Below, piece after piece: positions 13,060 to 53,879 of a stretch of DNA of 64,000 bases. The stretch is from an uncultured Thermoleophilia bacterium (lineage in GTDB: Bacteria; Actinomycetota; Thermoleophilia; UBA2241), in the NCBI GenBank assembly GCA_963832655.1, contig CAWHUW010000006.1:252403-316402 (forward strand). Direction: 5' to 3'. The number at the start of each line of letters is the position of its first letter. Within the stretch, counting starts at the first letter, position 1. The position numbers and the translations under genes were made by a program. The notes under the pieces are model-generated. The model saw only the letters and a program-made list of their open reading frames with translations, searched no databases and had not been told where the DNA came from.

Positions 13060-13200
13060 AGGAACGACGGAACGTGCGCTCGGAGAGCTGGTGCAGTCGG
13101 AGACGCCGTCGACGTCTCCCCGACGGCCGGCGCAGCTTCGGCGCGCCACCCCACACCCATGACGACACTGCATTGCTCCCCCTCTTCACGATGGCGGGGC
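13060..13200 (-). promoter_or_regulatory. candidate ydaO/c-di-AMP-riboswitch-like leader upstream of potB-like gene
   Basis: The minus strand reads CGCCATCGTGAAGAGGGGGAGCAA .. GGGGTGGCGCGCCGAAGC .. (hairpin GGAGACG/CGTCTCC) .. CCGACTGCACCAGCTCTCCGAGCGC. Order and wording resemble the GGGGA-CC / GGGGUG / CCGA..CAGCU..CC blocks of the ydaO motif as I remember it. Confidence 0.35.
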
Positions 13201-24699: not shown

Positions 24700-24854
24700 T
24701 CAGTGTACCACCTGGATCCCGGCCGCCCGCCGCGCCGCGAAGCGGCATGCGGCGGGCGGCTGATACACTCGGCCCCGGCGGCCGCGGCCAGGCCGCCTCG
24801 CCGGACGAGGCCGCGTCGTCTCGCCGGACCGACGGCGTGACGAGAGGAGGCTCC

Positions 24855-35287: not shown

Positions 35288-35333
35288 GGCGCGGCCGGTG
35301 GTCTGGCTGCCGCCTGCCGCGAGCGGCCGGAGG

Positions 35334-35984
35334 TCAGGGCAGCCTGGCCGCCTTCACGATCAGCTTGGCGTCGAGCCATGCCTGACCGCCCGGCTCCGTC
35401 ACGTGCGCGAGAAGCTCGCGCACGCGGGCGGCCGTCTCTCCCTCGCACCGGGTGCATGACAACCACTCAGCGAAGACGTGACGGCGCGGGTGCTGCGCCA
35501 GGTCGACGACCCGGAGCCCCGCTGCCGAGAGCATCGCGACCCACTCCGTCTTCGTGTAGGCGCGCACGTGCGTCACGTCGCGCAACCGCTCGGCCTCTTC
35601 CACGCGCTCGTCGTTGTGCAGACCGTCCTCGATCACCACGAGGCGACGGCTGACTCGCGCCATCTCTTGGACGGCACCGGCCGGGTCATCGAAGTGGTGC
35701 GCGGCGAGGCGGCAGACGACGACGTCGAAGGACCGGTCCGCGAAGGGCAGCGCCTCGGCCGGGCAGACGACGTCGGGCTCCATGCCGGCGGAGGCGTCGC
35801 ACGTCGTCACCGTGCAGCCGCGCTCACGCAGGCGCCGCGCGACGTGACCCCCGCCCGTGGCGACGTCGAGCGCCGTCACGCCCTGCACCGGCTCGCACCA
35901 CTCGACCACGAGGTCGAGGTCGGCGCCGGCGCGATGCACGGCGCTGCGCTCGTACGCCTCGCGGCGCTCGTCCCACTCGTTCAC
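35334..35984 (-). CDS. class I SAM-dependent methyltransferase (Methyltransf_11-like)
   Basis: ORF 35334..35984, GTG start. ALDVATGGGHVARRL (motif I) and FDVVVCRLAAHHF. Confidence 0.75.
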   Translation of the reverse strand: MNEWDERREAYERSAVHRAGADLDLVVEWCEPVQGVTALDVATGGGHVARRLRERGCTVTTCDASAGMEPDVVCPAEALPFADRSFDVVVCRLAAHHFDDPAGAVQEMARVSRRLVVIEDGLHNDERVEEAERLRDVTHVRAYTKTEWVAMLSAAGLRVVDLAQHPRRHVFAEWLSCTRCEGETAARVRELLAHVTEPGGQAWLDAKLIVKAARLP

Positions 35985-36055
35985 GACACGAGTCTACGCG
36001 AAGCCGACGCGGGTCGCCCCGTCCTGCCCCCGACGCCGCCCTGAACGTAACGTGA

Positions 36056-36083
36056 GAGGGGCGGGCCTCACGGCCCGCCCCTC
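36056..36083 (-). terminator. hairpin terminator downstream of corrinoid protein gene
   Basis: 12-bp stem GAGGGGCGGGCC/GGCCCGCCCCTC with a 4-nt loop, about 50 nt after the TAG stop at 36131. Confidence 0.5.
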
Positions 36084-36130
36084 GGGAGTCTCGCAAAGGT
36101 CCGGGGCGTCGCCCCGCGAAGGCGTCTTCC

Positions 36131-36769
36131 CTACTTGCCCAGCAGCGCGTCGATCTTCTTGACGCCGTCGTTGGCGTCCTCGGCGTAGGCGTCGGCGCCG
36201 ATCTGGTCGGCCCAGCGCTGGGTGGCGGGAGCGCCGCCCACCACGGTCTTGAAGGAGAGGCCCTCGTCCTTGATGACCTTGATGACCTTCTTCTGCTCCT
36301 CCATCGTCGTCGTCAGCAGAGCGCTCATGCCGATGATGTCGGCGTTCCCTTCCTTGGCCTTGGCGATGAAGGTCTGCGCGGGGACGTCGCGGCCCAGGTC
36401 GGTGACCTCGTAGCCGTTGGCCTTGAGGTAGGCGATCACGATCGCCTTGCCGATGTCGTGCACGTCGCCCTGCACGGTGCCGATGACGACGCGCCCCTTG
36501 GTGGTCGCCGCGCCGGCCTCGAGGGCGGCGTTGGTGACCTCGGTCGCCCCCGCCATCGCGTCGGCGGCCATCATCAGCTCGGGGAGGAACATCTCGCCGC
36601 TCTCGAAGAGCTCGCCGACCTCCTGGATGCCCTTCACGAAGCCGTTCTGCATGATGTCGGCTGGGGTCATGCCCGCGGCCAACGCACGCTTGGCGATGTC
36701 TTCGGCGGCCGCGCGGTCGGCGTTGACGATCGCCTCGCTGGCTTCCTGGTAGAGCTCTTCGTTCCCCAT
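36131..36769 (-). CDS. corrinoid (cobalamin-binding) methyltransferase-partner protein (MtbC/MttC/MtmC-like)
   Basis: ORF 36131..36811; ATG at 36769 after GGGAGGAG. FVKGIQEVGELFESGEMFLPELMMAADAM, B12-binding motif GTVQGDVHDIGKAIV, MSALLTTTM, VGGAP. TAG stop. Confidence 0.9.
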   Translation of the reverse strand: MGNEELYQEASEAIVNADRAAAEDIAKRALAAGMTPADIMQNGFVKGIQEVGELFESGEMFLPELMMAADAMAGATEVTNAALEAGAATTKGRVVIGTVQGDVHDIGKAIVIAYLKANGYEVTDLGRDVPAQTFIAKAKEGNADIIGMSALLTTTMEEQKKVIKVIKDEGLSFKTVVGGAPATQRWADQIGADAYAEDANDGVKKIDALLGK

Positions 36770-36917
36770 GGCCTCGCACTCCTCCCAACGTCGTTCGCAG
36801 CCGTAGATCATACTGCAGCCGTCGCCGACGACCTCGCTCGCGGCAGGGCAAGGCTTTCATCCGATTGGATGACTGTCAAGGACGAGCCGCCGCGCACGCC
36901 TCTGCTAGACTCGGGCC

Positions 36918-37797
36918 ATGAGGTATCACGGCGCCGTCATCCGACCCCCGAGCGAGGCCACCAGCCTCATCCTGCAGGTGACCTACGGGTGCTCCAACAA
37001 CACCTGCGACTTCTGCGGGACGTACCTGGACAAGCCGTTCGCGGTCCGGCCGTTCGGCGAGGTCGCCGAGGACGTGACCGGGCTTCCGGCGGCGGTCAAG
37101 GCGCGCGCCCAGCGCGTCTTTCTCGCCGACGGCGATGCGCTCGCGCTGTCGGCCCGCCGGCTGCTCGAGATCCTCGACCTGCTGCACGCGGAGCTCCCCA
37201 ACCTCGAGCGCGTGAGCTCGTACGCCAACGCGAAGAACCTGCTCGACATGCAGGTCGACGAGCTGCGCCAGCTCAGCGAGCGGGGGCTCGACCTCCTGTA
37301 CCTCGGGCTCGAGTCGGGCGACGACCAGACGCTCGCCGCCATCCACAAGGGCATGACGGTGAGCCGAGCAGGTCGAGGGCTGCCGGCGGGCGAAGGCGGC
37401 CGGCATGAAGCTCTCGGTCACGGCGATCCTCGGCCTCGCCGGCACCGCCCGCTCTCTCGAGCACGGGCGGGCGACGGGCGAGGCCCTCTCGGCCATCGAC
37501 CCCGCCTACATCGGCATCCTCACCCTCATGCTCGTGCCGGGCACGGGCATGCACCACAAGGTCGAGAGCGGCGAGATCGCGCTGCCGGACTCCGTCGGCA
37601 TGCTGCGGGAGCTTCGCGAGATCGTCGCCCACACGGACGTCACCGACTGCCTCTTCCGCTCGAACCATGCCTCCAACTACCTGCCCGTCGGCGGCCGCCT
37701 GCCACAGGACAAGGCGGCCATGCTGACGCGGCTCGACAAGGTGCTCCAGGCGCCCGAGGCCGTGCAGTTGCGGCCCGAGACCTGGCGCGCCCTCTAG
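36918..37797 (+). CDS. radical SAM protein (Cx4Cx2C cluster motif), one frame break near 37360
   Basis: ORF 36918..37916 gives MRYHGAVIRPPSEATSLILQVTYGCSNNTCDFCGTY..FLADGDAL..YLGLESGDD. It continues in the ORF 37405..37797 frame (open from 37363): AEQVEGCRRAKAAGMKLSVTAILGLAG..LTLMLVPGT..FRSNHASNY. TAG stop. Confidence 0.8.
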
Positions 37798-37836
37798 GGA
37801 CGGCGCCGTGCGCGGGCCAGGGGCGCTTCGCTCGTC

Positions 37837-38422
37837 ATGGTCGTCGCCGTGGTGCTGGTCGGGGCTCGCGGTCTGGACGTGGCTGCCGCCGACCGAGTCC
37901 TCGCAGGAGGCGATGAAGCAGAGCATCGTGCGCTACGACACGGCTTCCCTCATCGCCTGGCCCGAGGACCGTCCCGGGCAGACGTCGCTCCCGCAGGCGG
38001 CGAAGGACGAACTGCGTGCGAAGTGGCACACGACGCTCGCCGCAGTATCGGAGGGTGACGCCCTGACGAGGACACTTCAGTTCGATGCGGTCGACCAGAT
38101 GCTGGGCGATCGCCGCCGCCAGCCGGACCGGGTAGTGGTGGCGTGCGGCGGCGAGGTCGTGTACTTCGACGTGCGCCGCCGCACCCTGCGGGGCACGGTG
38201 ATCGTCCGCGCCGCCGTCGCCGAGTGGGTCGAGGCAGGGACGTGGGACGCGGACAGCGGCGCGGTGGTGCGCGTCACGCGCGAGAAGCGCACCAGCGTCC
38301 CGCTGTGTGACTACACCCTGCGCCAGCGCGGCGACGTGTGGAAGGTCGTCGACCGCGCCGCACCGAAAGGCGGGCCGTTCTTCTTCGACACCGAGACCGG
38401 AGAGACGTCGAGCGGGCTGTGA
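37837..38422 (+). CDS. hypothetical membrane-anchored protein, frame break at the G4 run 37861..37864
   Basis: ATG at 37837 gives MVVAVVLVG (ORF 37837..38058). The ORF 37808..38422 frame continues LAVWTWLPPTESSQEAMKQ... Removing one G joins them into one TM helix. I recognise no family. Confidence 0.5.
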
Positions 38423-38480
38423 CGGGCGCCCGCCCGTGCCGCCTTCATCATGCGCCCCAGACGCCCAGCGTGAAGGTTCC

Positions 38481-38825
38481 TCAGCCCGCCGGCATGTCCT
38501 CGTCCCTGAGGAACGAGCCGTAGTCGCGGCGGAACTTCGTCGCCGCGTACTTCTGCAGCTTCCACTCGGGGATGCGGCACTGCGGACAGGCCTCGATGAA
38601 CCACTTGTTGCGCAGCCAGCGGGCGGAGCGGCTGGTCTTCGAATCGCGAACGACCATGCGCTTGCCGCAATGCGTGATGACGATCGCGTGCAGGCCGCGA
38701 GGCTCGAAGTCGCGCACCCCGTGCAGGATACCGCGACGCGACGGCCAGAGCTTCATCTTCTCGACCAGGCGGAAGAGAGGCACCTGCTTGCGGTAGTAGC
38801 GCGCCTTGTTCGGGTCGGTGGGCAT
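38481..38825 (-). CDS. pylSn: pyrrolysyl-tRNA synthetase N-terminal domain protein (PylSn, tRNA(Pyl)-binding)
   Basis: ORF 38481..38825: KLWPSRRGILHGVRDFEPRGLHAIVITHCGKRMVVRDSKTSRSARWLRNKWFIEACPQCRIPEWKLQKY. This aligns with the M. mazei PylS N-terminus [61 protein letters not shown] (LW.SR.G..H, CG, VV..S..SR.AR.LR, C..CR). Confidence 0.85.
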   Translation of the reverse strand: MPTDPNKARYYRKQVPLFRLVEKMKLWPSRRGILHGVRDFEPRGLHAIVITHCGKRMVVRDSKTSRSARWLRNKWFIEACPQCRIPEWKLQKYAATKFRRDYGSFLRDEDMPAG

Positions 38826-38826
38826 G

Positions 38827-40501
38827 TCAGGGCGTCGCGGCCCGGTAGAAGGGCAGGAAGTCGTAGACCGCCCTGGTGGCCACGCCGTCGAGGACGGTGT
38901 CGACCGTCAGCCTGTCAGGGCGCCACTCCTCCGGACCCACACGGAACGAGCCGTCGCCCAGCGGCACGAGCTCGAGCTCGCCGGCCGGCTCGTCGAGCCA
39001 CGGGGCGATCAGCCACAGGCTGCCGGCGCGCTCGACGACGCGCAGGTGGCTCATCCAGGGGTTCCAGCAGTGGTAGTGGCCGCAGACGGCGGATGCGCCG
39101 GGGATCGGGGGGAACTCCGTCGGGCCGCCGTAGGCGGGCCCGGCGTACCAGTCCGCGCCGTGCGTCACCTGCGTGACGCGTCCCTGCTCGTCACGCCAGA
39201 AGCGCAGCGGGAAGCGGTCGAGGTCGGCGTGCGGGACGAGGAAGACGTCCTCGTCGTCGCGCTCGAGGACGACGTCGGCGCCCTGGTGGCGCAGAAGGAG
39301 ACGTCCGCCGGCGGCCGCGAGCGTCAGCGAGCGGCCCGACGCCGGCCCGCCCGGGGGCGCCGCGTACACGCCGGCGTACTCCCCGGCCGCGCCGCCCGAG
39401 GTCGGCGGGCGGCGGCGGCGGCGGCGCAGGCATGGCCTGCCCGGCCGCCGCCGCCCGCCCCGCCTCCAGCACGTACTTGACGAGGTCCTTGCGCTCCTCG
39501 TTGCCGTTCATGAGGACGACGACGCCCAGACCCGCGTCGGGATCGACCATCAGGTACGAGCTGAAACCCACCATGCCGCCCGAGTGACCCACGAGCGTGC
39601 GGCCTTCGTCGTCGTAGACCCCGAGTCCGTACCCGTACCAGTCGTCCTCGGTCGGATCCTCGACGTGCCGCCCCGTCAGCAGGCGGAACGCTTCGGCGCT
39701 GAGCGACCGGCCGTCGGGTCCCTCGCCGCCGTTGAGCAGCAGCCGCGCGTACGCGCACATGTCGGCGGCCGTCGACACGATGCTGCCGTCGGCGCTGGCG
39801 GTCTCGTACCAGGGACTCGCCACCAGAGGGTGCCCCCCGTGCCGGGGCCTGTCGTCGTACATGCGCTGGTGCGGCGTCGCCGTCGACGCCCTCGTGGCCA
39901 GAGCGATCATGGGGTCGCTGTCGTCCATCCCCAGCGGCAACAGCAGTCTCTCGGCGAGCAGCTCCGGGAACGGTGCGCCGGTCACCTCCTCGAGCACGAC
40001 GCCGAGCAGCTTGTAGCCGTCGTTCGAATACAGGAAGCGCTCGCCGGGCGCGTACGTGCACTCGCTCTCGCGCATGAGCCACAGCTCGTGGCGCGCGTCC
40101 AGGCTGACGTCCGTGCCGGTGATGAGGCCGGAGGTGTGGGTGAGCAGGTGGTGGAGCGTGATCGGGGCGAAGCGCGAGCGCACGGTGAACCACGGGACGT
40201 AGTCGGTGACGGGGGCGTGCAGATCGAGGTTCCCGCGTTCCCATTCCTGGAGAACGATGATCGCCGTGAACGACTTGCTGATCGAGCCGATCTGGAAGCG
40301 GTCGGTCGCAGTCATCGGGCGTCGCGCGGCAAGGTCGGCCCAACCACACGCGACGGCGCCGAGAGACCTGTCGCGGTCGGTGAGGCCGACGACCGCGCCG
40401 GGCGTGTGCCACCGCGGCAGACGTGCGTCGATGAAGGCGCCGACCTGCTCGAGCAGGGGCGTCGCATCCATGCGCGCGGTCGAGTCGAGTGAGCCCGTCA
40501 T
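38827..40501 (-). CDS. serine hydrolase (beta-lactamase/PBP4*-like) with C-terminal extension domain, one frame break near 39395
   Basis: ORF 39191..40900 carries DRFQIGSISKSFTAII (SxxK), YSNDGY and GHSGGMVGF. ORF 38827..39369 forms the C-terminal domain. The stop lies 1 nt before the pylSn ATG. Confidence 0.75.
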
Positions 40502-40609
40502 CGCCCGCCCATGATAGCCGTTCGGAGGGCGCCGCATCGGGGAGGCGCAGGAGGGCGGACGGCGCGCGCGAAGATGAAGGTTCCCGCCCGCCGAACGAGG
40601 GAGAGACCG

Positions 40610-41509
40610 ATGAAACGTGCCGGCATCGTCGTCGCCGCCCTGGCCATCCCGGTAGCCGTCGTCCTCGCTCTCGCCTTTGGCCTCGCCTCCTGCGGCGACG
40701 ACGGGACCGCTGGACCCACGCCGACCAAGACGGTGACCGTCACGGCGACCCCTTCCGCCTCGCCGTCGCCCTCCCCAAGCCCGACGGGGACGATGACGGT
40801 CTCCATCTACCTCATGCGCGGCGAGACGCTGGGCGTCGCCCACCGCGAGGTGCCGGCCTCCGTCGCCGTGGCGAAGGCGGCGATGACCGCGCTGCTCCAA
40901 GGGCCGAACGCGCGCGAGAAGGCCGCCGGCCTGACCACGACGATCCCCGCCGGCACGACGCTCAACGAGGTGACGATCGAGGACGGCACGGCGCGCGTGG
41001 ACCTGAGCGACGACTTCGCGAGCGGTGGCGGTTCGCTCTCGATGCAGGCACGGGTCGCCCAGGTCGTCTATACGCTCACGCAGTTCAGGACGGTCAATCG
41101 CGTCGACTTCTGGATCGACGGCGGGCTCGTCGAGACGCTCGGGGGCGAAGGGCTCGACCTGAGCGCCGGACAGACCCGCGCCGACTGGGAGGAGATGCTG
41201 CCGGCGATCTTCGTCGAGACGCCGGCCGTCGGCGACGTCATCACCGGCTCTCGCCTCGCCGTCCGCGGCAGCGCCTCCGTGTTCGAGGCGACCTTCGTGG
41301 TCGAAGTCCTCGGCGCCGACGGTGCGATCGTCGCCGACAAGACGGTGACCGCCACGGAGGGCGCCCCGGGGCGCGGCGTCTTCGCGGTACGCCTCGGCCT
41401 GCCGCCGATGAGCGGCAAGGGCAAGCTGGTCGCCTACGAGGTCTCGATGGAGGACGGCTCGCGCATGAACCAGGTGAGGATCCCGCTGCGCTTCGCCGTC
41501 GAGGACTGA
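40610..41509 (+). CDS. GerMN-domain plus Gmad2-like Ig-domain lipoprotein
   Basis: In ORF 40511..41509; ATG at 40610 after GAGGGAGAG. Signal plus lipobox LALAFGLASCGDD, then VSIYLMRGE..ALLQGPN..GLTTTIPAGT..VDLS.. (GerMN), then IFVETPAVGDVITG..VRGSASVFEATF. Confidence 0.7.
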   Translation: MKRAGIVVAALAIPVAVVLALAFGLASCGDDGTAGPTPTKTVTVTATPSASPSPSPSPTGTMTVSIYLMRGETLGVAHREVPASVAVAKAAMTALLQGPNAREKAAGLTTTIPAGTTLNEVTIEDGTARVDLSDDFASGGGSLSMQARVAQVVYTLTQFRTVNRVDFWIDGGLVETLGGEGLDLSAGQTRADWEEMLPAIFVETPAVGDVITGSRLAVRGSASVFEATFVVEVLGADGAIVADKTVTATEGAPGRGVFAVRLGLPPMSGKGKLVAYEVSMEDGSRMNQVRIPLRFAVED

Positions 41510-41528
41510 CGGCGGGCGAGAGGACGGC

Positions 41529-41601
41529 TGGCGGGGACTGCGGGAGTCACACCCGCCTGCGTGGGTTTAGAGCCCACGCTGATCCTTTCGATCGAGCCCC
41601 C
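41529..41601 (-). tRNA. pylT: tRNA-Pyl (anticodon CUA), CCA encoded
   Basis: The minus strand reads GGGGGCT C GATC GAAAG GATC AG CGTGGG CTCTAAA CCCACG CAG GCGGG TGTGACT CCCGC AGTCCCC G CCA. Features: 7-bp acceptor stem (one G-U pair), a single nucleotide between the acceptor and D stems, 5-nt D loop without GG, 6(-7)-bp anticodon stem, CUCUAAA loop, 3-nt variable loop, T loop without TTC, and G73 discriminator. Confidence 0.92.
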
Positions 41602-41764
41602 GCGCCGACGACGATGATACCTCCGTCACGGCCGCGCCGCTCCTGGAACTGGCAGAGCAGCGGCGCGTCGGGATAGAGTTGCGCATCACCCGGCGCCGCC
41701 GTATGCCACTCGACGTGCGGTGTCGACGACGATCTCACGGCCACTCACACGAACGGGGGTACTC

Positions 41765-42811
41765 ATGGGCAAGGGACTGAGCTGGGCCCTGACCATCATC
41801 GGCGTCCTGCTGCTCGCCGCCGGGCTCGTCCTCATGCTGGCGATCGTGCCCGGCATGAAGAAGATGCCGGCCGACACCGACACGACGCGAGACTACGAGG
41901 GCACCATGGTGGTGTTGCTGAACCCGGCCGACTTCACCTTCCAGAAGATGCTGCCCATCACCCTCCAGCGGCACTTCGCCGTCACGGAGACCGACGGTGA
42001 CCTCGCCCTTGTGAAGGAAGAGAAGACCATGATGACCGGCAGCACGCCGCTCCAGCAGGTCGTCACCAACTACGCCGTCGACCGGGTCACCATGCTGGCC
42101 ACGGACCAATACCCCGAGGAGTGGGCGACGAGCGAGGGCTTCATCCCGCGCGAGGGCATCGTGCTGAGCTGGCCGATGGACACCGAGCAGAAGGACTACA
42201 CGGGCTGGAGCGACGACTACATGAGCACCGTGCCGCTCACTTTCGCCGAGGAAGCCACGCACGAGCGCAGCGGCATGACGCTCTACAAGTTCACGTCCAG
42301 CAGCGACCCGAAGCCCATCGTCCCCGAGATGGTGACGGCCATGGGCCTGCCGACCGAGCTGCCCAAGGCGCAGGTCCAGCAACTCCTCGGGCAGATCGAC
42401 CTGTCGGCGCTGCCCGGCGACGTCCTGACGACGCTGTTCGCGAAGCTGCCGGACCCGGTGCCGCTGGGCTACTACTACGGCTATGACGGCACCTACTGGA
42501 TCGACCCCGCGACGGGGATCATCGTGGACGTCGAGAAGACCGAGAAGCGCAGCGTGTCCCTCAGCCCCGACCTCCTCGAAGGCACGCCGCTGGCGCTGCT
42601 TCCGGAGGACCAGATGGCGGTGCTCCGGGTCCCGGTCTCGGACTTCAAGTACACCGCCACCGACGCCTCGGTCGAGGCCGCAAAGACCGACGCCGAGGAC
42701 GGGGCGAGCAAGCTTCAGCTCTACGGCACGACGCTGCCGTGGATCGGGATCATCGCCGGCGCCGTGCTGCTGGTGATCGGCCTCGTCCTGATGAGGCGCA
42801 AGACGGCCTGA
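41765..42811 (+). CDS. DUF3068 (PorA-like) membrane protein with N- and C-terminal TM helices
   Basis: In ORF 41720..42811; ATG at 41765. GKGLSWALTIIGVLLLAAGLVLMLAIVP at the N-terminus and WIGIIAGAVLLVIGLVLMRRK at the C-terminus. Family assignment is from general resemblance only. Confidence 0.55.
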   Translation: MGKGLSWALTIIGVLLLAAGLVLMLAIVPGMKKMPADTDTTRDYEGTMVVLLNPADFTFQKMLPITLQRHFAVTETDGDLALVKEEKTMMTGSTPLQQVVTNYAVDRVTMLATDQYPEEWATSEGFIPREGIVLSWPMDTEQKDYTGWSDDYMSTVPLTFAEEATHERSGMTLYKFTSSSDPKPIVPEMVTAMGLPTELPKAQVQQLLGQIDLSALPGDVLTTLFAKLPDPVPLGYYYGYDGTYWIDPATGIIVDVEKTEKRSVSLSPDLLEGTPLALLPEDQMAVLRVPVSDFKYTATDASVEAAKTDAEDGASKLQLYGTTLPWIGIIAGAVLLVIGLVLMRRKTA

Positions 42812-42925
42812 GCTACGCGACAAGGCTCGACGTCGCGGCACGAGCGCGCGCCGCGGAGTGCGACGAGGGGCGGGCGGCACCAGTGCCGCCCGCCCCTCGC
42901 TCGCGTGCGTGGCTTAGCTTCGCCG

Positions 42926-43810
42926 TCAGGCGAGCGCCCGTGCCGCCATGACGGCGACGCCGACCGCGAGAGGGTCGTGGATGTGACGCGGCCCCAGCGC
43001 GGCGCGAGCACCGGCGTCGAGCGCCGGAGGCACCCCCGGCGCCGCGACGATGGCGCCCGGGCAAAGGTCGCCGGCGGTGACGATGTCGGCCACCGGTGTC
43101 GCGTCGAAGAGCAGGTCGCAGCGTGCGAGCCCATCCGCCAGGTCGGTGCGGGCGAACGGGAGTCCGTCGGCCGTCGCCCTCGCCACGGCACCATCGTCGG
43201 GGTCCACGGCGAGCAGGTCGGCGCCCATGGCCGTCAGGCGCCGGCCGGCGGCGCGGCCGACCGGACCGAGGCCGAGCAGCAGGACGGACCGGCCGGCGAG
43301 ACCGCCGGCCGCCGCCGCGAGCGCCGTGACGTACCCGTCGGCCGTCGCCGGGTCGTCGTCGACGCACAGACCCGTGTGGATGTTCAGCGCGATGAACCGG
43401 AAGTCGTCGGCGACGAAGACGACTTCGTCACCCCCTTCGGCCGCCGCCTGCAGACCACGCACGTCGGGCTGCGTCGTGACGTGGGCGTCGCACCCCAGGT
43501 GCCGAAGGATCGTGACGACGCACTCGCAGAAGCCGGGGATGAAGCCCTCGCCGCTGCTCACCGGCACGGCGGCGACGCGGGCGCCGGCGAAGGGCACTGC
43601 TGTCGTCGGCGCCGCCCCTGGCAAGACCGTCGCGTCTGAGCGCTCCGCTCGTGACGCCAGCGCACGGTCGACGTCCACCGTGCGTTGAGCGAGTCCGAGG
43701 AGCGTGAGACCGCAGACCGCGACGAGATCGCGCTCGAACGCGCCGAGGCGCGCGCTCAGCTCCCGGACGTCGTGCTCGGTCAACCTGGTCACCGCGTCAC
43801 CGTCCTTCAC
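42926..43810 (-). CDS. pylD: pyrrolysine biosynthesis dehydrogenase PylD
   Basis: ORF 42926..43810: VAAVPVSSGEGFIPGF, VVFVADDFRFIALN, Rossmann motif LLLGLGPVGRAAG, FDATP, VAAPGVP. These parallel the Methanosarcina PylD blocks VGIVPVTSGNGIIGNF, ILMADDRTFLAHN, VVGLGKVG, FEATP, STPGIP. Confidence 0.85.
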   Translation of the reverse strand: MKDGDAVTRLTEHDVRELSARLGAFERDLVAVCGLTLLGLAQRTVDVDRALASRAERSDATVLPGAAPTTAVPFAGARVAAVPVSSGEGFIPGFCECVVTILRHLGCDAHVTTQPDVRGLQAAAEGGDEVVFVADDFRFIALNIHTGLCVDDDPATADGYVTALAAAAGGLAGRSVLLLGLGPVGRAAGRRLTAMGADLLAVDPDDGAVARATADGLPFARTDLADGLARCDLLFDATPVADIVTAGDLCPGAIVAAPGVPPALDAGARAALGPRHIHDPLAVGVAVMAARALA

Positions 43811-43852
43811 TTGCGGTCCGCGTCGCTCTCGGGCCCGCGGTCGCCGATGTCC

Positions 43853-45070
43853 TCACAGAGTCTCACCCTCAGGGAGAACTTCAAGGTTCTCCTCCGCGGC
43901 CAGCGCGGCGACCACGTCGTCTGCCGTGCGCTGCGCCTCGGCCACGCTCGCTCCCAGTGTGATCAGCGTCGCCGACCACGCTGACCGCCCCGGTCCGTAG
44001 TCGGTCAGCGCCTCGTGGGCACCGAAGAACCCGGGCGCCAAGGTGAGCGGCCGGGCGCCGCCCATGACGTGCTCGCCCGCGACCGCCAGCCTGCCGTCTT
44101 GTGCGTGGACGTGCTGATAGACGCAGGCTCTCGAAGACGTCCTGTCGACCTTCGGCGGACGGCCGTCGGCGATCGTACGCCGCAGCAGCTCGACGATGTT
44201 GAGACCGCTCGACCAGTAGACCGCCGTCGGGGTCTGGCTCGGCAGCCGGGCGTCGATCTCCAGCACCTTGGGCTGCGCCTCGTGGACCATCACTTCGACG
44301 TCCATGAGCCCACGTAGGCCAAGACTTTCCGCGAGCCGCACGGATACCGCGTCGAACGCTTCGAGAACGCCAGGCGCCACGGCCTGCCCCCACGCCTCGC
44401 CCGTGACGCGCTCGTCGGCGGGCGTCGCGCCGGCGGCCTCGCTGACCGGGGCGACGACACGCCGGCAGTCGTAATCGGCGTCGAACTCGAGCCCGGTGAC
44501 CTGCAGGGGCACGGCGTGGCCGTCCCAGCAGAGCACCTCGAGCGAGAGCGACGGGCCGGCGACGTACTCCTCGACTATGGCGTCGTGCCCCTCGGCCTCG
44601 AGCGCGGCGCGCGCCGCGGCGAGCTCATGCTCGTCGGCGGCGAGCCGCACGCCCTCGCTGCCGCTCGCGGCGCTGGGCTTGACGACCACCGGGAACGCAC
44701 AGCCGGGCCACGGTATCGGTCGCGGCACATCAAGCCGCGCGAAGAGCTCGTTCGAGGCGAGCTTGGAGGAGGTCACCGCATACGCGGCGAGGTCGAAGAG
44801 CAGCGGCACGTCCCAACGCGGCACGTGCGCGTCGAGCCAGGCGAGCGTGGCGTCGTCCTCGCAGGCGGGCAGCACGGCGTCGCAGGTGTCCAGCACGGCG
44901 CGGCTCCGCGCCTCGTCGGCGGTCACGTCCATGACCACGTGGACGTCGGCGAGGCCGGCGGCCGGCGGTGCCTCGCGACGGTCGATCAGGACCGTCTCGT
45001 ACCCCGCCTTGGCGGCGAGGTAGACGGCCTCCGTCCCCTGCAGCTTGCCGCCGACGATCGCCAGCCTCAC
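43853..45070 (-). CDS. pylC: pyrrolysine biosynthesis ATP-grasp ligase PylC
   Basis: ORF 43853..45184. GTG at 45070 after GGGGGAG, overlapping the upstream TGA (GTGA). VRLAIVGGKLQGTEAVYLAAKAGYETVLID, VVVKPSAASGSEGV, SLEVL, MDVEV, EIDARLPSQTPTAVYWSSGLNIVELL matches remembered PylC (EIDARFPSQTPTVVYYSSGINLIELL). Confidence 0.88.
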   Translation of the reverse strand: MRLAIVGGKLQGTEAVYLAAKAGYETVLIDRREAPPAAGLADVHVVMDVTADEARSRAVLDTCDAVLPACEDDATLAWLDAHVPRWDVPLLFDLAAYAVTSSKLASNELFARLDVPRPIPWPGCAFPVVVKPSAASGSEGVRLAADEHELAAARAALEAEGHDAIVEEYVAGPSLSLEVLCWDGHAVPLQVTGLEFDADYDCRRVVAPVSEAAGATPADERVTGEAWGQAVAPGVLEAFDAVSVRLAESLGLRGLMDVEVMVHEAQPKVLEIDARLPSQTPTAVYWSSGLNIVELLRRTIADGRPPKVDRTSSRACVYQHVHAQDGRLAVAGEHVMGGARPLTLAPGFFGAHEALTDYGPGRSAWSATLITLGASVAEAQRTADDVVAALAAEENLEVLPEGETL

Positions 45071-45300
45071 GTCGACTCCCCCGTCCGCGGCGGAGCGGCG
45101 GCGCCGGCGACGCGCAGACGCTCCAGCGTCTCTCGGTAGGCCGCGACCCCGGCCGGGCGCAGGCCGCGACGCTCGAGGGCGCACACCCCCAGCCGCGCGC
45201 CTTCCAGCGCGGCCGCGCAGAGTGCGCGCACGGTCTCCCTCGACGGTGTCGTCTGCATGTCCGTCTGTCCGAGCATCACGTCAGCGGCGATCGCGTCGGC
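45067..45300 (-). pseudogene. short ORF translationally coupled to pylC; possible 3' remnant of pylB
   Basis: Tail of ORF 45067..45447 downstream of the nitroreductase stop: ..ADAIAADVMLGQTDMQTTPSRETVRALCAAALEGARLGVCALERRGLRPAGVAAYRETLERL... The stretch LERRGLRPAGVAAYRETL resembles the PylB C-terminal LEIMGMKPARQADFEAVL of Methanosarcina. No radical SAM core is present. Confidence 0.3.
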
Positions 45301-45307
45301 GACCGGC

Positions 45308-46021
45308 TCAGCGCCAGTCGAGCACCTCGTCAAGGGGGCGCCGTCCGCTGCGCCGCGGGCGCCCGGCGGATCGCCCGATCGGGACCAGCGCCGCGAGACG
45401 AGCATCGGCCGGCGCGCCGAGGAGTCCTTCGAGCGCCGGCGCCGCAAGCACCGGCGCCGTCATCCAGCACGACCCGTACCCCATCGCGTGTGCCGCCGTG
45501 ACGAGCAGCTGCACGGCGGCGCCGATACTCTGCAGGTCGGGTCGCTGACGGACGCGGTCCCTCTCATCGGTCGAGAGGCCGCGCGCCGCGAGCAGCTCAT
45601 CGCTGCGCGACGAATACGGCGTCGCGAACACCGCGATCACCACGGGGGCCTCGGCGAAGAACGTCGCGTACGCGCGGATCGCGCGGATGTCGCGTCCGCG
45701 CCCCTGGCACTCCGGCAGGCCGGCCATGACGTCGAGTGCGGCGTGGACCGCCTCCGCCATCTCGCGCCGCAGCGCCTCGTCCTGGACAGCGACGAACCGC
45801 CACGGCTGGGAGTTGCCGGCGTTGGCGGCGCGCACGGCGAGCGCGACCATGGCCTCGATGTCTGCGCGGGGTACCGGGTCGGGAAGGAAGCGGCGGACGC
45901 TGCAGCGTTCCTCCACAGTCGCCGCGAAGCTCGCCTGGCTCAGACGCTCGCGCGCGTCGGAGGCATCACCGGGGACCGCGGGCAGCCGTCCGTCGCTGGT
46001 CTCGTCGCGTCTCCTCGGCAT
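45308..46021 (-). CDS. nitroreductase family flavoprotein
   Basis: In ORF 45308..46303; ATG at 46021. RCSVRRFLPDPVPRADIEAMVALAVRAANAGNSQPWRFVAV .. GAAVQLLVTAAHAMGYGSCWM. Confidence 0.8.
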   Translation of the reverse strand: MPRRRDETSDGRLPAVPGDASDARERLSQASFAATVEERCSVRRFLPDPVPRADIEAMVALAVRAANAGNSQPWRFVAVQDEALRREMAEAVHAALDVMAGLPECQGRGRDIRAIRAYATFFAEAPVVIAVFATPYSSRSDELLAARGLSTDERDRVRQRPDLQSIGAAVQLLVTAAHAMGYGSCWMTAPVLAAPALEGLLGAPADARLAALVPIGRSAGRPRRSGRRPLDEVLDWR

Positions 46022-46098
46022 GTGCGCACCCCGGAAGAAGAGGGGCGGCGCGGGCGCCCTCCGGGCGCCCGCGCCGCCCCGTCGTGTCGCGTTCTTCG

Positions 46099-46368
46099 TC
46101 AGCCGCCCGAGATCGGCGGGACGACGTTCATCTTGTCGCCGTCCTCGAGCTCTGTCTTCACACCCTCGCGGGCATTGATGTTGCGCCCGTTGAGGAAGAC
46201 GCCCGCCCACATGCGCCCGTCCTCGCGGTAGATCCGCGGGCGCAGCCGTGGCTCGATGGCGATCGCGCTGTCGAGCGCCTCGCCGACGGTCGCCGCGTCG
46301 CATTCGACGTCGCGACGGCCGTCGCCCGTCGTCATCCCGACCGGCAGCTTGACGGAGACCTTGGCCAT
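46099..46368 (-). CDS. MoaD/ThiS family ubiquitin-like sulfur-carrier protein (C-terminal GG)
   Basis: ORF 46099..46368, 89 aa, ..NGRNINAREGVKTELEDGDKMNVVPPISGG. Confidence 0.75.
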   Translation of the reverse strand: MAKVSVKLPVGMTTGDGRRDVECDAATVGEALDSAIAIEPRLRPRIYREDGRMWAGVFLNGRNINAREGVKTELEDGDKMNVVPPISGG

Positions 46369-46372
46369 GACC

Positions 46373-46870
46373 TTACGCCTGCAGCTCCTTGTCCATCTTG
46401 TCGACCTTGAGGTCGACGGCGAGGACGTGGGGGTTCTGGCAGAAGGCGATGCACTGGGGCTCGCCGTCGCAGAGGTCGCACTTGAAGGCGACCTCGCGGT
46501 CGGGGTGCTCGTGGATGACGTCGGTGGGACAGACGTCGTAGCACTCGCCGCAGTTGGTGCAGAGGTCGTCGACGACGACGAGCACGTAGCCCTTGACGGT
46601 GTCGCCGAGCTTCTCGCGGCCGGCGAAGTCGCCCTTGACCTTGACGGTGATCTCCTTCGTCACGATGGCGTCGTTGGGGCAGGCCTCCTGGCACTTGGCG
46701 CAGCCGGTCTGCAGGCAGGTGTGGCCCTTGATGGCGCCCGTGGTCGGGTTGACCTCCGCCCAGAGCCGCGCGACGCTGGGACGGAAGGCGCCCTCGTGGT
46801 AGGCGCTGCAGGCGAGCTCGCACTGGTGGCAGCCGGTGCACTTCTTGCTTGAGATCATCACGTGGGGCAT
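46373..46870 (-). CDS. 4Fe-4S dicluster ferredoxin-domain protein (AOR-associated electron transfer subunit)
   Basis: ORF 46373..46870. Cys motifs: CTGCHQCELAC, CAKCQEACP, CTNCGECYDVCP, CDLCDGEPQC. TAA stop. Confidence 0.8.
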   Translation of the reverse strand: MPHVMISSKKCTGCHQCELACSAYHEGAFRPSVARLWAEVNPTTGAIKGHTCLQTGCAKCQEACPNDAIVTKEITVKVKGDFAGREKLGDTVKGYVLVVVDDLCTNCGECYDVCPTDVIHEHPDREVAFKCDLCDGEPQCIAFCQNPHVLAVDLKVDKMDKELQA

Positions 46871-46901
46871 CGTTCTCCCTTTCCTGAGAGCCAGCCGCCG
46901 T

Positions 46902-48707
46902 CTAGAGGCGCACGTCGACGCCGAGCTCGGCGAGCTTGGCCTCGGTCGGGACGCCGTTCTCGTCCCAGCCGCGCAGGGCGTAGTACTTCTGGATCGACTC
47001 GTGGAAGAGGTCGTCGCCCACGACCTTGCCGGCGGACGGACCCTCGGTGTGGGCGACCTCGTACAGCTTCTTCGGCAGGTCGTCCTTCTCCACGCCCTCG
47101 CGCAGGTTGAAGAGACGGGCGAGGTTCCAGATGCGCTCGCCCATCGTCATGACCTCCTCCTCGGCGACGTCGCGCCCGAGCACCAGCGGGAACATGACGG
47201 TGAGCTGCTCGGGGGTGACGGCCCAGAAGTCGCACCAGATGCCGCTGAACTTGATCGAGCTGAAGTTCTGCCCGATGAAGCCGTTCGCCGTGTTGCCGGC
47301 GATGATCTGCTCGACCTTGCCCTCCATCGTGTCGGCCGGCAGCGTGCCCGCGGCGAGCTCGTCGCCCGGCGGGAAGGCCCGCATGTGGCAGCCGCCCCGG
47401 TCGCTGGTCGCGTAGCTGATGGCGCTGCCGAACGAGCCGCGCGGGTCGTAGCCCGGCACCTCCAGTCCCTTGACCTGGATGGCGAGCTCAGGATGGCCGT
47501 ACTGGGCGGCGAGCGCTCTTGTGCCCTTGGCAAGGTCGGCGCCGATGCCCTCGCGCTTCGCGATGAGCGTCGGCGCCGCGACGTAGCCCTCGACCTCGCC
47601 GAAGTGCAGACCGAAGTCCTTGATGCCCTTTTCGGTCATGTCCATGGCGAGACCCACGACGGCGCCCGAGGAGATCGTGTCGAGGCCGAGCTCGTCGCAG
47701 AGCTCGTTGAACTTCATCAGCGCGTCGATGTCGTCGATGCCGCAGTTCGCCCCGCAGAGGGCGATGGTCTCGTACTCGGGGCCCTCGCCGTGCACCTCGG
47801 CGCCGGCGAACGTGGTGACGTGGAAGTTGCGGCAGCTGATCGAGCATTGGTAGCAGCCGCGCTTCTTCAGGCGGATCTTCTGAAAGGCCTCGGAGTTGAT
47901 CTTCTCGGCGCCCTCGAACTCGCCCGCCGACCAGTTGCGGGTCGGCAGCGCGCCGCCGCCGTTGACCACGTCGACCAGGGTCGGCGTGCCCTCCTCGTGA
48001 GCCCACATGTTGTCGTCGGTCAGCACGTAGTCGGTGTGTATCTTGTAGAGCAGGTCGAGGAAGGCCTTGGCGTCGCCGACCGGGACGCTGCCGGTGCCGC
48101 GCACTACGACCGCCTTGAGGTTCTTGTCGCCCATGAGGGCGCCGTGACCCGCCCGGCCGGCCTTGTGGTACTGGTCGGTGGAGATGCAGGCGAAGGCGAC
48201 CTTGTGCTCGCCGGCCGGCCCGATCGAGAGCGTCTTGGCGTTCTTGTCGACGTCCTGGCGCATGGCCTCCTCGATCTCGGAGGTCTTCATGCCCCAGTAC
48301 TTGGCGGCGGGCATGAACTCGACGACGTCATCCTTGATGACGACGATCGTCGGCTCCGCCGCCTTGCCTTTGATGATCACCGCGTCGTACCCGGCGAACT
48401 TGAGCTCGGGGGCGAACGATCCGCCGACGTAGCTGTCGTTGAGGATGCCGGTGATCGGGCTCTTGCAGCCCACCACGAGGCGCGACGCGGTGCTGACCGT
48501 CGTGCCGGCGAACGGGCCCGTCATGAGGATGAGCGGAGCCTGCGGGGACCACGGGTCCATCTTCGGCTCCACCTCCTCCCACAAGTACCTCAGAAGGAGG
48601 CCCTTGCCACCGAGGTACTTCTCGGCCCACGCCATGTTGAGCGGCTCGACGGCGGTGGTGCCGGCGCTCAGGTCGATCCTGAGCACTCTGCCCTTGTAGA
48701 AGTCCAA
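46902..48707 (-). CDS. aor: aldehyde:ferredoxin oxidoreductase (tungstopterin AOR family)
   Basis: ORF 46902..48761. TTG at 48707, 5 nt after AGGAGG. Colinear with remembered P. furiosus AOR: GGKGL, GPFAGT, SPITG, LKFAGYDA, GPAGE, KAGRAGHGALMG, CYQCSISC, GPEYET, CDELGLDT, YATSDRGGCH. TAG stop. Confidence 0.9.
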   Translation of the reverse strand: MDFYKGRVLRIDLSAGTTAVEPLNMAWAEKYLGGKGLLLRYLWEEVEPKMDPWSPQAPLILMTGPFAGTTVSTASRLVVGCKSPITGILNDSYVGGSFAPELKFAGYDAVIIKGKAAEPTIVVIKDDVVEFMPAAKYWGMKTSEIEEAMRQDVDKNAKTLSIGPAGEHKVAFACISTDQYHKAGRAGHGALMGDKNLKAVVVRGTGSVPVGDAKAFLDLLYKIHTDYVLTDDNMWAHEEGTPTLVDVVNGGGALPTRNWSAGEFEGAEKINSEAFQKIRLKKRGCYQCSISCRNFHVTTFAGAEVHGEGPEYETIALCGANCGIDDIDALMKFNELCDELGLDTISSGAVVGLAMDMTEKGIKDFGLHFGEVEGYVAAPTLIAKREGIGADLAKGTRALAAQYGHPELAIQVKGLEVPGYDPRGSFGSAISYATSDRGGCHMRAFPPGDELAAGTLPADTMEGKVEQIIAGNTANGFIGQNFSSIKFSGIWCDFWAVTPEQLTVMFPLVLGRDVAEEEVMTMGERIWNLARLFNLREGVEKDDLPKKLYEVAHTEGPSAGKVVGDDLFHESIQKYYALRGWDENGVPTEAKLAELGVDVRL

Positions 48708-48905
48708 TGCGTCCTCCTGAGGCCGTGCTGGAACGTGCCCCCGTACGTCTCGCGCACACACCGCAGCGGCGCGAAGAGGGGATGACAGGCTCGGTCATTC
48801 TATGGGAGCCGGCGCGGGCGGGCAACACCTCGGCGAGCCCGCCGACTCGGATGAGCGTCCGAAAACGCCAGCAAAAAGAGGACGGCGGCCGGCCTCAGCG
48901 CGGCG

Positions 48906-51353: not shown

Positions 51354-52615
51354 CTAGAGCAGCTCGCGTGGGTCACGGATGGCGCCGGCGATCGCCGTCG
51401 CGGCGGCCGTCGCCGGTGATGCGAGATAGATGGACGCCTCGGGGTTGCCCATGCGTCCCTTGAAGTTGCGGTTCGCGGTGCTGACGCAGACCTCGCCGTC
51501 ACCGAGGATGCCTTCGTGGATGCCGACGCAGGCGCCGCACCCGGGGTTGGTCACCACGGCGCCGGCCTCCCAGAAGACCTCGAGCAGGCCCTCACGCGCG
51601 GCGGCTCGGACGACGTCGCGCGAGGCGGGCGTCACGATGAGACGGGTGGATGGCGCGCGGCGGCGCCCGCGCAGCACGTCCGCCGCCGCGCGCAGGTCCT
51701 CGAGGCGTCCGTTGGTGCACGTCCCGATCAGCACCTGGTCGACGCGCACGTCGCCGAGCGATCCAGCCGGAGCGACGTTGTCGACGGCGTGCGGACGCGC
51801 CACCGTCGGCACGACGGCGGCGGCGTCGAAGGGGGCGACGCGCGCGCAGGCGGCACCGGGGTCGGCCGCGAGAGGCCGCCAGTCGGCCTCGCGGCCCTGC
51901 GCGGCGAGAAAGGCGCGCGTCGTCTCGTCGCTGGCGATGAGGCCGGCCTTGGCGCCGGTCTCGACGGCCATGTTCGCGAGCGTGAGCCGGCCGGCCATGC
52001 CGAGGGCATCGATGGCCGGCCCGCCGAACTCGAGCGCCTGGTACGTCGCGCCGTCGGCGCCAAGCGCGCCGATGATGCGTCAGCATGAGGTCCTTGGCGG
52101 CGACGCCCTCGGTCGAGCGCGCCGGCTACCTCGACACGCACCGTCTCGGGCACGCGCAACCAGGTCTTGCCGCTCACCATGCCGACCGCGACGTCGGTGG
52201 AGCCCATGCCGGTCGCGAAGGCGGCGAGCGCCCCCGCAGTGCACGTGTGCGAGTCGGCGCCGATCACGAGGTCGCCGGGCTTGGCGTAGCTCTCGGCGAC
52301 GCGCTGATGACAGATGCCCATCTCGACGTCGGAAAGCGTCGCTCCGGACTCGGCGCAGAAGGCGCGGATCGTGCGCTGCGCGTTGGCGAGCTCGCTGCGC
52401 GGGGCCGGCGCCGCGTGATCGATGAAGAACACGCACGTCGGCGCCTTGACCCGCGCCGCGCCGAGCTCCTCGATCTGCTGGATCGCGAGGGGACCCGGTC
52501 CCGTCCTGGGCGATGCGCCACGTCGACGTCGGCGACGACGATCTGACCAGGCACGACGGCGTCGAGGCCGGCGTGCGCGGCGATGCAGCTTCTCGGCGAG
52601 GGTGAGGCCGCTCAC
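51354..52615 (-). CDS. leuC: 3-isopropylmalate/(homo)aconitate hydratase large subunit (LeuC-like), several frame breaks
   Basis: GTG at 52615 overlaps the upstream stop (GTGA). FIDHAAPAP..GICHQRVAESYAKPGDLVIGADSHTCTAGALAAFATGMG (51728..52915 frame). ORF 51354..51998: RLTLANMAVETGAKAG..IGTCTNGR..NPGCGACVG..STANRNFKGRMG. TAG stop. Confidence 0.8.
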
Positions 52616-53879
52616 GCGTCGCCCTTCTCTGCCGCCTGGTCGGCCACCGCGGCCGCATCCGCCGCCGCCGCGGCCGCGCGCCCGCCGTTGCCCACGGGCA
52701 CCGCCTCGCCGAGGCGCACGAGGTAGTCGTGGTAGATGTACATGAGCTCCTTGTCGAAGAGCGCACGCTTGAGCTCGACGGCGGTCTTGCGCACCAGCTC
52801 GAGGATGCCGTCGCAGTCCGCCTTGGTCGAGCTCGATGCCGAACTCCTGGAACTTGCGGTAGATGGTGCGCGAGCCGGAGTGCTTGCCGACGACGATCTG
52901 GCGCTCGAGCCCCACGTCCTCGGGAGCGAAGGCCTCGTAGTTGAGCGGGTTCTTGATGACGCCGTCGGCGTGGATGCCCGGACTCGTGCGCGAACACGTT
53001 GGTGCCGACGATCGACTTCCACGCCGGGATCGAGCGCGCGGAGGCGGCGGCGACGTACTCGCTGAGCTCGCGGAAGCGCGCCGTCTGCAGGCCCAGGTCC
53101 ACCTTGCCGAGGTGCTTGAGCGCCATGACGACCTCTTCGAGGGCGGCGTTGCCGGCGCGCTCGCCGAGGCCGTTGACGGTCGTGTTCACGTAGGTCGCCC
53201 CCGCCTTGATGCCGGCGAGCGCGTTGGCCGTCGCCATGCCGAAGTCGTTGTGCGTGTGCATCTCGATGGTCAGGCCGTGGCGCTTGAGGAAGCTGATGAC
53301 GTTGAAGGTGTCGAACGGGTCGAGGATGCCGAGCGTGTCGCAGAAGCGCAGGCGGTCGGCGCCCTCCTCTTTGGCCGCCTGGCCGAAGCGCAGCAGGAAC
53401 TCGAGGTCGGAGCGCGAGGCGTCCTCGGCGTTCACCGAGACGTAGAGGTCCTTCGACTTGGCGAAGGCGACGCACTCCCTGATCTGGTCGAGGACCCACT
53501 GACGCGACTTCTGCAGCTTGTGCTCGATGTGGATGTCGCTCGCCGACATCGAGATCGCGACCGCGTCCACCCCGCAGTCCATGGAGTGCTGGATGTCGGC
53601 GGCCACGGCCCGGTTCCAGGCCAGGATCGAGGTGTCGAGCCCGAGGTCGACGATCTGCGCGATCGTCGCCTTCTCGTCGCCGCCCATCGCCGGGATGCCC
53701 ACCTCGATCTGGTGGACCCCGACCTCGTCGAGCAGCTTGGCGATGCGGATCTTCTCGTGGTTCGAGAAGACGACGCCGGCCGTCTGCTCGCCGTCGCGCA
53801 GCGTGGTGTCGTCGATGTAGACCGCCGGCTCTGCCGGCTGGACCGGCTCGATGACGAAGCTCCTGAGGTCGCTGGTCAT
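52612..53879 (-). CDS. LeuA/NifV family acetyl-CoA:2-oxoacid condensing enzyme (2-isopropylmalate / citramalate / homocitrate / Re-citrate synthase family), frame breaks in the 3' third
   Basis: ORF 52080..53885; ATG at 53879 after GAGAGG. DTTLRDGEQTAGVVFS, IEVGIPAMG, EMHTHNDFGMATANALAGI, VNGLGERAGNAALEEV, FAHESG. Continues as IHADG../GLERQIVVGKHSG (51728..52915 frame) and a C-terminus in the 52612..53499 frame. About 420 aa, with no long LeuA regulatory domain evident. Confidence 0.75.

Follow-up and report, generated by a model that had tools for sequence, protein, structure and literature searches.

The window analysed here is a 64-kb stretch of DNA (64,000 nucleotides) from an uncultured Thermoleophilia bacterium (assembly GCA_963832655.1, contig CAWHUW010000006.1, positions 252,403 to 316,402). 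It carries a cassette for pyrrolysine (Pyl), the 22nd amino acid. The genes pylC and pylD stand next to each other in the cassette, and pylB, the radical S-adenosylmethionine (SAM) gene that supplies the methylornithine moiety, seems to survive only as a short relic between a nitroreductase gene and pylC. From the nitroreductase stop to the pylC start the gap measures ~240 bp and holds one open frame. The features at this point are listed below, with residue numbers that follow P0135, the intact 375-aa PylB of the closest relative, L066, a Thermoleophilia metagenome-assembled genome (MAG; MFD00032.bin.2.201) from a scan of GTDB.

45308-46021, minus strand: intact nitroreductase-family open reading frame (ORF; NCBIfam), an upstream neighbour of pylB that is conserved in the clade
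45067-45276, minus strand: pylB remnant ORF of 69 codons plus stop, MLGQTDMQTTPSRETVRALCAAALEGARLGVCALE followed directly by RRGLRPAGVAAYRETLERLRVAGAAAPPRTGEST, that is, PylB residues 1-35 joined to 342-375
45172-45178, minus strand: deletion junction with the sole remaining repeat copy, CCTCGAG, where the blastn segments overlap
45067-45070, minus strand: GTGA overlap of the remnant TGA (45069-45067) with the pylC GTG (45070-45068), read directly from the sequence
43853-45070, minus strand: pylC, with its GTG start at 45070 (TIGR03909, 354 bits against a cut-off of 248; PDB 4FFL PylC, E=1.5e-47)
42926-43810, minus strand: pylD, 294 aa, intact (TIGR03911, 177.5 bits against a cut-off of 150)

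A Shine-Dalgarno-like run, GGGGGAG, lies 5 nt 5' of the pylC GTG. The remnant has three in-frame start options, ATG 45276, which is homologous to the L066 start, GTG 45279 and ATG 45258.

Direct searches with the remnant are empty. Neither its 63-aa nor its 79-aa version matches an NCBIfam model at E≤1 or E≤0.01, so the 348-bit cut-off of the PylB model TIGR03910 is not reached, and phmmer against the PDB at E≤10 does not return the PylB structure 3T7V. The homology is visible only through close relatives. Close homologues of PylC number in the thousands, and the contigs L001 and L005 carry a PylC that is 78% and 70% identical, respectively, to that of the window. Both preserve the gene order aldehyde:ferredoxin oxidoreductase (AOR), ferredoxin, ThiS-like, nitroreductase, a radical SAM gene of 355-369 aa, pylC, pylD, and the radical SAM gene before pylC is PylB (TIGR03910, 449 and 446 bits). 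When the L001 PylB is used as a tblastn query, window positions 45177-45094 match residues 336-363 at 71% identity (E=3e-6) and positions 45252-45172 match residues 5-31 at 59% identity (E=0.003). Protein alignment likewise finds both ends of PylB in the short frame of the window, and the C-terminal piece, aligned through L066, matches '...RRLEIMGMKPARQADFE' of the Methanosarcina barkeri PylB (3T7V). Local and pairwise alignments were used in place of a global MAFFT alignment of remnants and intact genes, which put the pieces in wrong places.

The retained parts are thus homologous to PylB, the DNA is colinear with the pylB of L066, and the frame overlaps pylC. On these sequence grounds, the short ORF is a pylB remnant. 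An earlier note on this DNA had come to the same view and had likened the last residues to the extreme C-terminus of Methanosarcina PylB; both points agree with the alignments above, including the significant C-terminal similarity that a comparison with PylB was to look for. The GTGA overlap and the intact nitroreductase ORF as the next gene upstream, which it also described, are found as stated. Where it saw only the tail of an open frame between the two genes, there is indeed a single open frame, although one that keeps the N-terminus as well as the C-terminus of PylB.

Along ~21 kb the window and L066 align colinearly (blastn), with a nucleotide identity of 92-95% to either side of one gap. 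Positions 10088-10998 of L066 are absent from the window, and the two alignment segments share the 7 bases at the junction. At the breakpoints L066 has two copies of ACCTCGAG, 918 bp (306 codons) apart, and in-silico deletion of one repeat copy and the intervening DNA yields a sequence that aligns without gaps to window positions 45045-45330. PylB residues 36-341 are lost, including CRNQCAFC at 77-84, which forms the CxxxCxxC motif for the iron-sulfur cluster and SAM, and the entire barrel. Rather than the 5'-truncated gene proposed earlier, the remnant represents an internal in-frame deletion of 306 codons that spared the original start region and the stop. In the ~15 nt 5' of the junction (45180-45195) there are 6 mismatches against L066, which read as protein give LGVCA against LEPRD; this is well beyond the background divergence of 5-8%. 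The cluster could reflect a local error, a relaxation of constraint on the remnant or a slightly shifted breakpoint.

The locus very probably holds a genuine pylB null allele that arose by one repeat-mediated in-frame deletion. The 8-bp repeat occurs twice in the same codon phase in the intact sister sequence, and one event that took out 918 bp between the copies, a pattern typical of replication slippage or microhomology-mediated deletion, would have fused codons 1-35 to the final 34 and left a 69-codon ORF that still stops in the GTGA overlap. The deletion would be recent on the window lineage because the sister MAG, at 92-95% DNA identity, keeps an intact gene. With 69 residues, and without the cysteine motif and the ~350-aa barrel, the remnant predictably cannot perform PylB catalysis, and the locus alone would be unable to make 3-methyl-D-ornithine. 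De novo pyrrolysine synthesis would then be blocked, except where another source provides the methylornithine moiety or a second pylB. Several points weigh against this reading. The N-terminal piece is unusually diverged from L066 near the junction, and the exact breakpoint may sit a few bases off. The window's own deletion is known from a single assembly, and a noisy one, with 92 indels against L066 in 21 kb. Finally, the functional consequence of the deletion is judged from a 64-kb window.

Related loci carry further deletions. In L006 and L101, whose PylC is 90% identical to that of the window, the gap between nitroreductase and pylC is 238 bp, and the remnant consists of PylB residues ~4-53 joined at a GCCGCCGC repeat to the last ~10 codons. 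The L006 and window junctions are not derivable from each other because each keeps a part that is absent from the other. The L006-type architecture, an 82-87-aa ORF before pylC, is also present in L105, where the nitroreductase is recognisable upstream, in L106 and in the contigs of the PylC proteins P0122 and P0124, so that it covers at least five samples. The 90% cluster of L006-type PylC has 23 members, of which the 14 listed at full length share 96.3-99.8% identity with L006. A further type is found in L003 and L004, two independent assemblies in which PylC is 72% identical to that of the window and the gap is 315 bp. Their 94-codon remnant retains residues ~8-38 and, with the cysteine motif, 63-84; past this point nothing is recognisable. 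Intact pylB genes are found in L007, whose PylC is ~90% identical to that of the window, and in L066. By distances at synonymous sites (dS), L007 groups with L066, and the window and L006 each branch separately. The data point to at least three independent deletions of the pylB core in this Thermoleophilia clade, and the L006-type deletion is, to judge from these contigs, fixed in one widespread lineage.

Two observations concern these relatives. At ~610-620 of L006, and also in L101, L105 and L106, the codon that matches ATG 45258 of the window is ACG, while an in-frame GTG upstream keeps the frame open; this may be an early sign that the remnant ORF is not maintained. The left flank of L003 (1-6018), shared with L004, is of a different composition. 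Directly upstream of AOR, where other loci carry Iso_dh and DUF3467, it has genes for an amino-acid permease, a class-V aminotransferase, two short-chain dehydrogenases and a 638-aa B12-binding radical SAM protein.

All three remnant types end at the original stop that overlaps pylC, and their net deletions are multiples of three. Extreme third-position GC bias places repeats in the same codon phase. Across ten pylB genes of the clade that are intact, the in-phase share of repeats spaced by 300 bp or more is 64% for 7-mers, 68% for 8-mers and 75% for 9-mers. Repeat-mediated deletion is therefore expected to be in frame, and three in-frame deletions out of three have a probability of ~0.3-0.4 under this control. 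Selection for translational coupling as an explanation of the three in-frame events was dropped on this result. The earlier suggestion that coupling to pylC was preserved accordingly holds for the stop/start overlap and falls as a claim about selection. Ribosomes translating the remnant would still reach the pylC start, probably as a by-product of in-phase repeats and not as a kept adaptation.

The nitroreductase gene is not foreign to this position. The order nitroreductase, pylB, pylC, pylD is standard in 51 related loci, in which pylB occupies the space between the nitroreductase gene and pylC, the former being 1071-1442 bp upstream of the latter; the exceptions with a short gap are the deletion loci. 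The earlier note had placed it directly upstream of pylC, where pylB was expected; a role as a replacement of pylB or an intruder into it is ruled out by the same neighbour in loci with intact pylB. PF00881 is found in the orthologues of L001, L003 and L005, and the window protein is 81% identical to that of L001. Its NCBIfam matches to BluB (69 bits) and to the FbiB C-terminal domain (54 bits) fall below the equivalog cut-offs, which allows a family-level assignment only. On its 5' side lie MoaD/ThiS-like, 4Fe-4S ferredoxin and AOR genes (NCBIfam).

The remainder of the cassette is spread over the adjoining part of the window:

41529-41601, minus strand: pylT, tRNA-Pyl with anticodon CUA (ARAGORN)
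38481-38825, minus strand: pylSn, small subunit of the Pyl-tRNA ligase, 114 aa (TIGR03912, 120.8 bits against a cut-off of 51)
36131-36811, minus strand: methylamine-methyltransferase-type corrinoid protein of the conserved pyl neighbourhood (TIGR02370, 222 bits against a cut-off of 215)
34432-35287, plus strand: pylSc, catalytic subunit of the Pyl-tRNA ligase, read in two frames (TIGR02367 in two pieces)

The pylT gene is identical to that of L001, which has pylB. An Rfam scan of the whole window at gathering thresholds returns no family, although the ARAGORN tRNA-Pyl is kept in all related loci. The two TIGR02367 pieces of pylSc score 191 and 110 bits and are split by a +1 frameshift, caused by an extra base near 35019-35024 that is absent from L066, L102 and L005. 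This frameshift has much company. Among the 92 indels that separate the window from L066, 69 are single-base and 82 are of 1-2 bases. In short-read relatives the orthologues of several window genes are read in a single frame, whereas the window copies break up into two or three; the genes concerned are those for an HMGL-like synthase, a leuC-like aconitase, a beta-lactamase, the small radical SAM enzyme, pylSc, a second corrinoid protein and CysRS (52715-52978, 52076-52115, 52516-52584, 39396-39464, 37363-37379, 35019-35024, ~10404 and 22180-22791). L066 is itself frame-switched in pylC, pylD and the nitroreductase gene. Many MAGs from the GTDB scan have isolate names starting with 'MFD', the prefix of a long-read sequencing survey of soils and sediments. 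The indels of the window are likely to be long-read consensus errors. The pylSc frameshift is unusable as evidence of decay because it is indistinguishable from this pervasive noise, and it was dropped as a decay sign. On the available sequence, pylC, pylD, pylT and pylSn are structurally intact and pylSc is probably so. Users of pyrrolysine were looked for, non-exhaustively, by scanning the window for ORFs with TAG read-through and selected window ORFs for Pfam domains; neither an ORF interrupted by TAG nor a gene of the mttB, mtbB or mtmB kind was recognised.

A second pylB was sought within and beyond the window. A tblastn search of the 64 kb with the L001 PylB finds no PylB-like stretch beyond the remnant, in agreement with the earlier statement that the locus has no intact pylB. 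That neither radical SAM gene of the window is PylB also stands: the gene at 15472-16884 encodes a BchE/HpnJ-like B12-dependent enzyme, and the one at 36918-37797 a small radical SAM enzyme that is conserved beside the corrinoid protein. B12-dependent radical SAM genes as an alternative route to methylornithine are without support, the gene at 15472-16884 and that of L003 being unrelated to each other. The GTDB scan was pattern- and word-based and used a fused query of the L001 PylB and the window PylC. It returned 80 loci, all with PylB and most with adjacent pylC. Nine loci are PylB-only, eight of them from genomes outside Thermoleophilia and the ninth, L065, from a 2.6-kb Thermoleophilia contig cut at the gene. 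The scan returned zero deletion loci, which is uninformative on the frequency of deletions in GTDB, as its PylC patterns were window-specific 8-mers and its ranking favours full-length matches. In the ~50 Thermoleophilia species genomes of the scan, no second or unlinked pylB locus was seen. Among 5.8 billion proteins searched with the L066 PylB, none falls between 87% and 100% identity, the range in which a vertically inherited copy from the abundant L006 lineage would be expected; this speaks against a relocated gene. The best non-self match, P0136, was considered as a relocated copy and ruled out, as it sits in a normal pylBCD operon. Taken together, the searches argue against a relocated pylB, and a divergent copy would still be compatible with them.

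The pathway genes that remain appear to be under constraint. For pylC, the ratio of nonsynonymous to synonymous substitution rates (dN/dS) is 0.29 between the window and L066, 0.22 between L006 and L007, and 0.29 between L007 and L066, both of which have pylB. For pylD it is 0.26 between the window and L066, with neighbouring genes ranging from 0.03 to 0.49. Branch estimates from three taxa put pylC at 0.31 on the window branch, 0.20 on that of L006 and 0.25 on that of L066. PylC substitutions specific to one lineage occur at variable columns, with a mean conservation of 0.60 in the window, 0.68 in L006 and 0.60 in the pylB-bearing L007, against 0.81 for all columns. In P0124, the 9 substitutions that postdate the deletion have a mean conservation of 0.64 (P=0.015). 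Four pylC DNAs of the L006 lineage differ at only 6 codons, 4 nonsynonymous and 2 synonymous, and the resulting ratio of polymorphisms (pN/pS ~0.7) rests on too few sites to weigh. Overall, there seems to be no sign of relaxed constraint on pylC; recency is a possible explanation in the window and a harder one to apply to the L006 lineage.

What the deletion means for the host can be read in several ways. It is quite possible, if somewhat short of an even chance, that the whole pyrrolysine system is at an early stage of loss, with pylB hit first and pylC, pylD, pylT and pylS useless but as yet undecayed. Loss of pylB has been tolerated in three independent events, the deletion of the window is recent in view of the intact sister, and the remnant ATG of the L006 lineage has become ACG. 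The polymorphism of the L006 lineage would fit as well, as would the frameshift in pylSc and the failure of the non-exhaustive scans to recognise a Pyl-dependent methyltransferase gene or a TAG-interrupted ORF in the window. However, a count of 4:2 is much too low to be given weight, and the frameshift is one of ~90 indels typical of the assembly. The L006-lineage deletion, moreover, predates up to 3.7% amino-acid divergence in PylC, yet 14 of the 14 full-length members listed are intact at 405 aa. The contigs of L105, L106, P0122 and P0124 keep pylC, and pylD where the contig extends that far, and PylC substitutions in the deletion lineages spare conserved columns just as they do in L007 (0.60-0.68 against 0.81). 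Such lasting constraint would also be seen if an unlinked pylB elsewhere in the genome supplied methylornithine, so that the operon copy was redundant and the pathway fully functional. In 'Ca. Methanomethylophilus alvus' an unlinked pylB lies ~0.7 Mb from pylTSCD (PMC3941956), and several Desulfobacterales-type genomes gave PylB-only loci in the GTDB scan. This arrangement is nevertheless unlikely here, given that the 64 kb hold nothing PylB-like besides the remnant, that the Thermoleophilia genomes of the scan offer only the cut contig L065 in place of a second or unlinked locus, and that the protein search leaves a gap at 87-100% identity, with P0136 in an ordinary operon.

Alternatively, PylC and PylD may be kept for an ornithine-type precursor made without PylB, either scavenged 3-methyl-D-ornithine, which would give Pyl, or D-ornithine, which would give desmethylpyrrolysine, loaded by PylS onto tRNA-Pyl. 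In engineered Escherichia coli, PylC and PylD turn D-ornithine and lysine into desmethylpyrrolysine that PylRS accepts (PMC11467909). The remaining cassette is intact, PylC shows signs of constraint in the deletion lineages, and across ~60 loci the losses are repeatedly confined to pylB. Still, this use of the cassette seems rather improbable. Neither a source nor a transporter for such a precursor has been identified; the loci were found through PylC, so that loss of pylC could not have shown; three pylB deletions against zero pylD deletions are not significant (~0.17 by gene length); and recency explains the constraint signals too. A more specific conjecture, which we would consider doubtful at best, holds that some free-living Thermoleophilia shed the costly PylB step and build Pyl or its desmethyl analogue from 3-methyl-D-ornithine or D-ornithine of the community. 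If true, it would amount to a natural genetic code expansion that is cross-fed or uses an analogue, and it would explain repeated deletion of pylB only, with the rest constrained. There is, finally, a very slim chance that the deletion is an assembly artefact, or a minority structural variant in a population with mostly intact pylB. The window does have heavy indel noise, with numerous frame switches in housekeeping genes, and its particular junction has been seen only once. This noise, however, consists of indels of 1-2 bases (82 of 92) and not of kilobase deletions, the junction is that of a clean direct-repeat deletion with flanks colinear with L066, and comparable deletions are present in short-read assemblies made independently from several samples.

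A genuine deletion of pylB sets the window apart from known systems to different degrees. With the bacterial cassette of the Desulfitobacterium hafniense type (pylT, pylSc, pylB, pylC, pylD, pylSn) it shares the gene set, the split PylS, the adjacent pylC and pylD, a cognate corrinoid protein nearby and a tRNA-Pyl with a CUA anticodon. In contrast to that cassette, its pylB is cut down to a non-catalytic 69-codon fusion of both ends, its genes are spread over ~11 kb with unrelated envelope genes between them, a conserved block of nitroreductase, MoaD-like, ferredoxin and AOR genes lies upstream, and the host is a Thermoleophilia actinobacterium, probably of soil or sediment. A survey of PylRS-bearing bacteria includes only two Actinobacteria (PMC11764691). 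'Ca. M. alvus' likewise has a pylC-pylD locus without a functional pylB alongside (PMC3941956), but its pylB is intact elsewhere and no remnant is described at the cluster, whereas in the window a remnant marks destruction in situ and the 64 kb hold no second copy. Engineered pylTSCD strains fed D-ornithine, which make desmethylpyrrolysine (pyrroline-carboxy-lysine), resemble the window in combining PylC, PylD, PylS and tRNA-Pyl without PylB (PMC11467909); they are laboratory constructs given their precursor, while the window system is known from genes alone. As in ordinary bacterial pseudogenes formed by deletion between short direct repeats, an 8-bp repeat lies at the breakpoints, one copy is left and the flanks are colinear. 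Unlike those, the same gene was hit independently in three related lineages, and the neighbouring pathway genes are apparently constrained. A literature search found no paper that pairs 'pyrrolysine' with the phrase 'lack pylB' and none that ties pyrrolysine substantively to Thermoleophilia. The locus is a variant of a known system and not a new kind, notable for the recurrent loss, its fixation in one widespread lineage and its confinement to pylB.

Pyrrolysine systems are usually scored as present or absent by the co-occurrence of pylBCD and pylTS. The Thermoleophilia loci would represent a natural and recurrent intermediate state in an under-studied bacterial class, in which ligase, dehydrogenase, tRNA and synthetase persist alongside a radical SAM gene destroyed in situ. 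If the remaining genes are used, this state would be the first natural counterpart of the laboratory combination of pylTSCD plus D-ornithine and would suggest that microbes exchange Pyl precursors; if they are unused, the loci would form a dated series of snapshots of a genetic code expansion being lost. In annotation work, a short ORF coupled to pylC may turn out to be a relic of pylB, in-frame deletions within high-GC genes are not proof of selection, and any lone frameshift in this window is to be distrusted.

The pyl genes of the window are scattered across ~11 kb between unrelated genes (34432-48761 region), in an order that is kept in many Thermoleophilia MAGs: pylSc, SAM methyltransferase, corrinoid protein (TIGR02370), small radical SAM gene, a 204-aa ORF, pylSn, beta-lactamase, LpqB/Germane-like gene, pylT, PgfA/PorA-like gene, pylD and pylC. 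The 204-aa ORF, at 37808-38422, has no Pfam or NCBIfam match. Farther away, an Orn/Lys/Arg decarboxylase fragment (PF01276) lies at 24764-25735, inside a stretch of frequent frame switching from 20.4 to 29 kb, and the frame at 8274-10040 reads as that of a putative carboxylate-amine ligase (YbdK-like). Beside ABC-transporter permease genes (10221-11024, 11139-13160) stands an apparently frameshifted gene for another B12-binding corrinoid protein, which shares 41% identity with the first.

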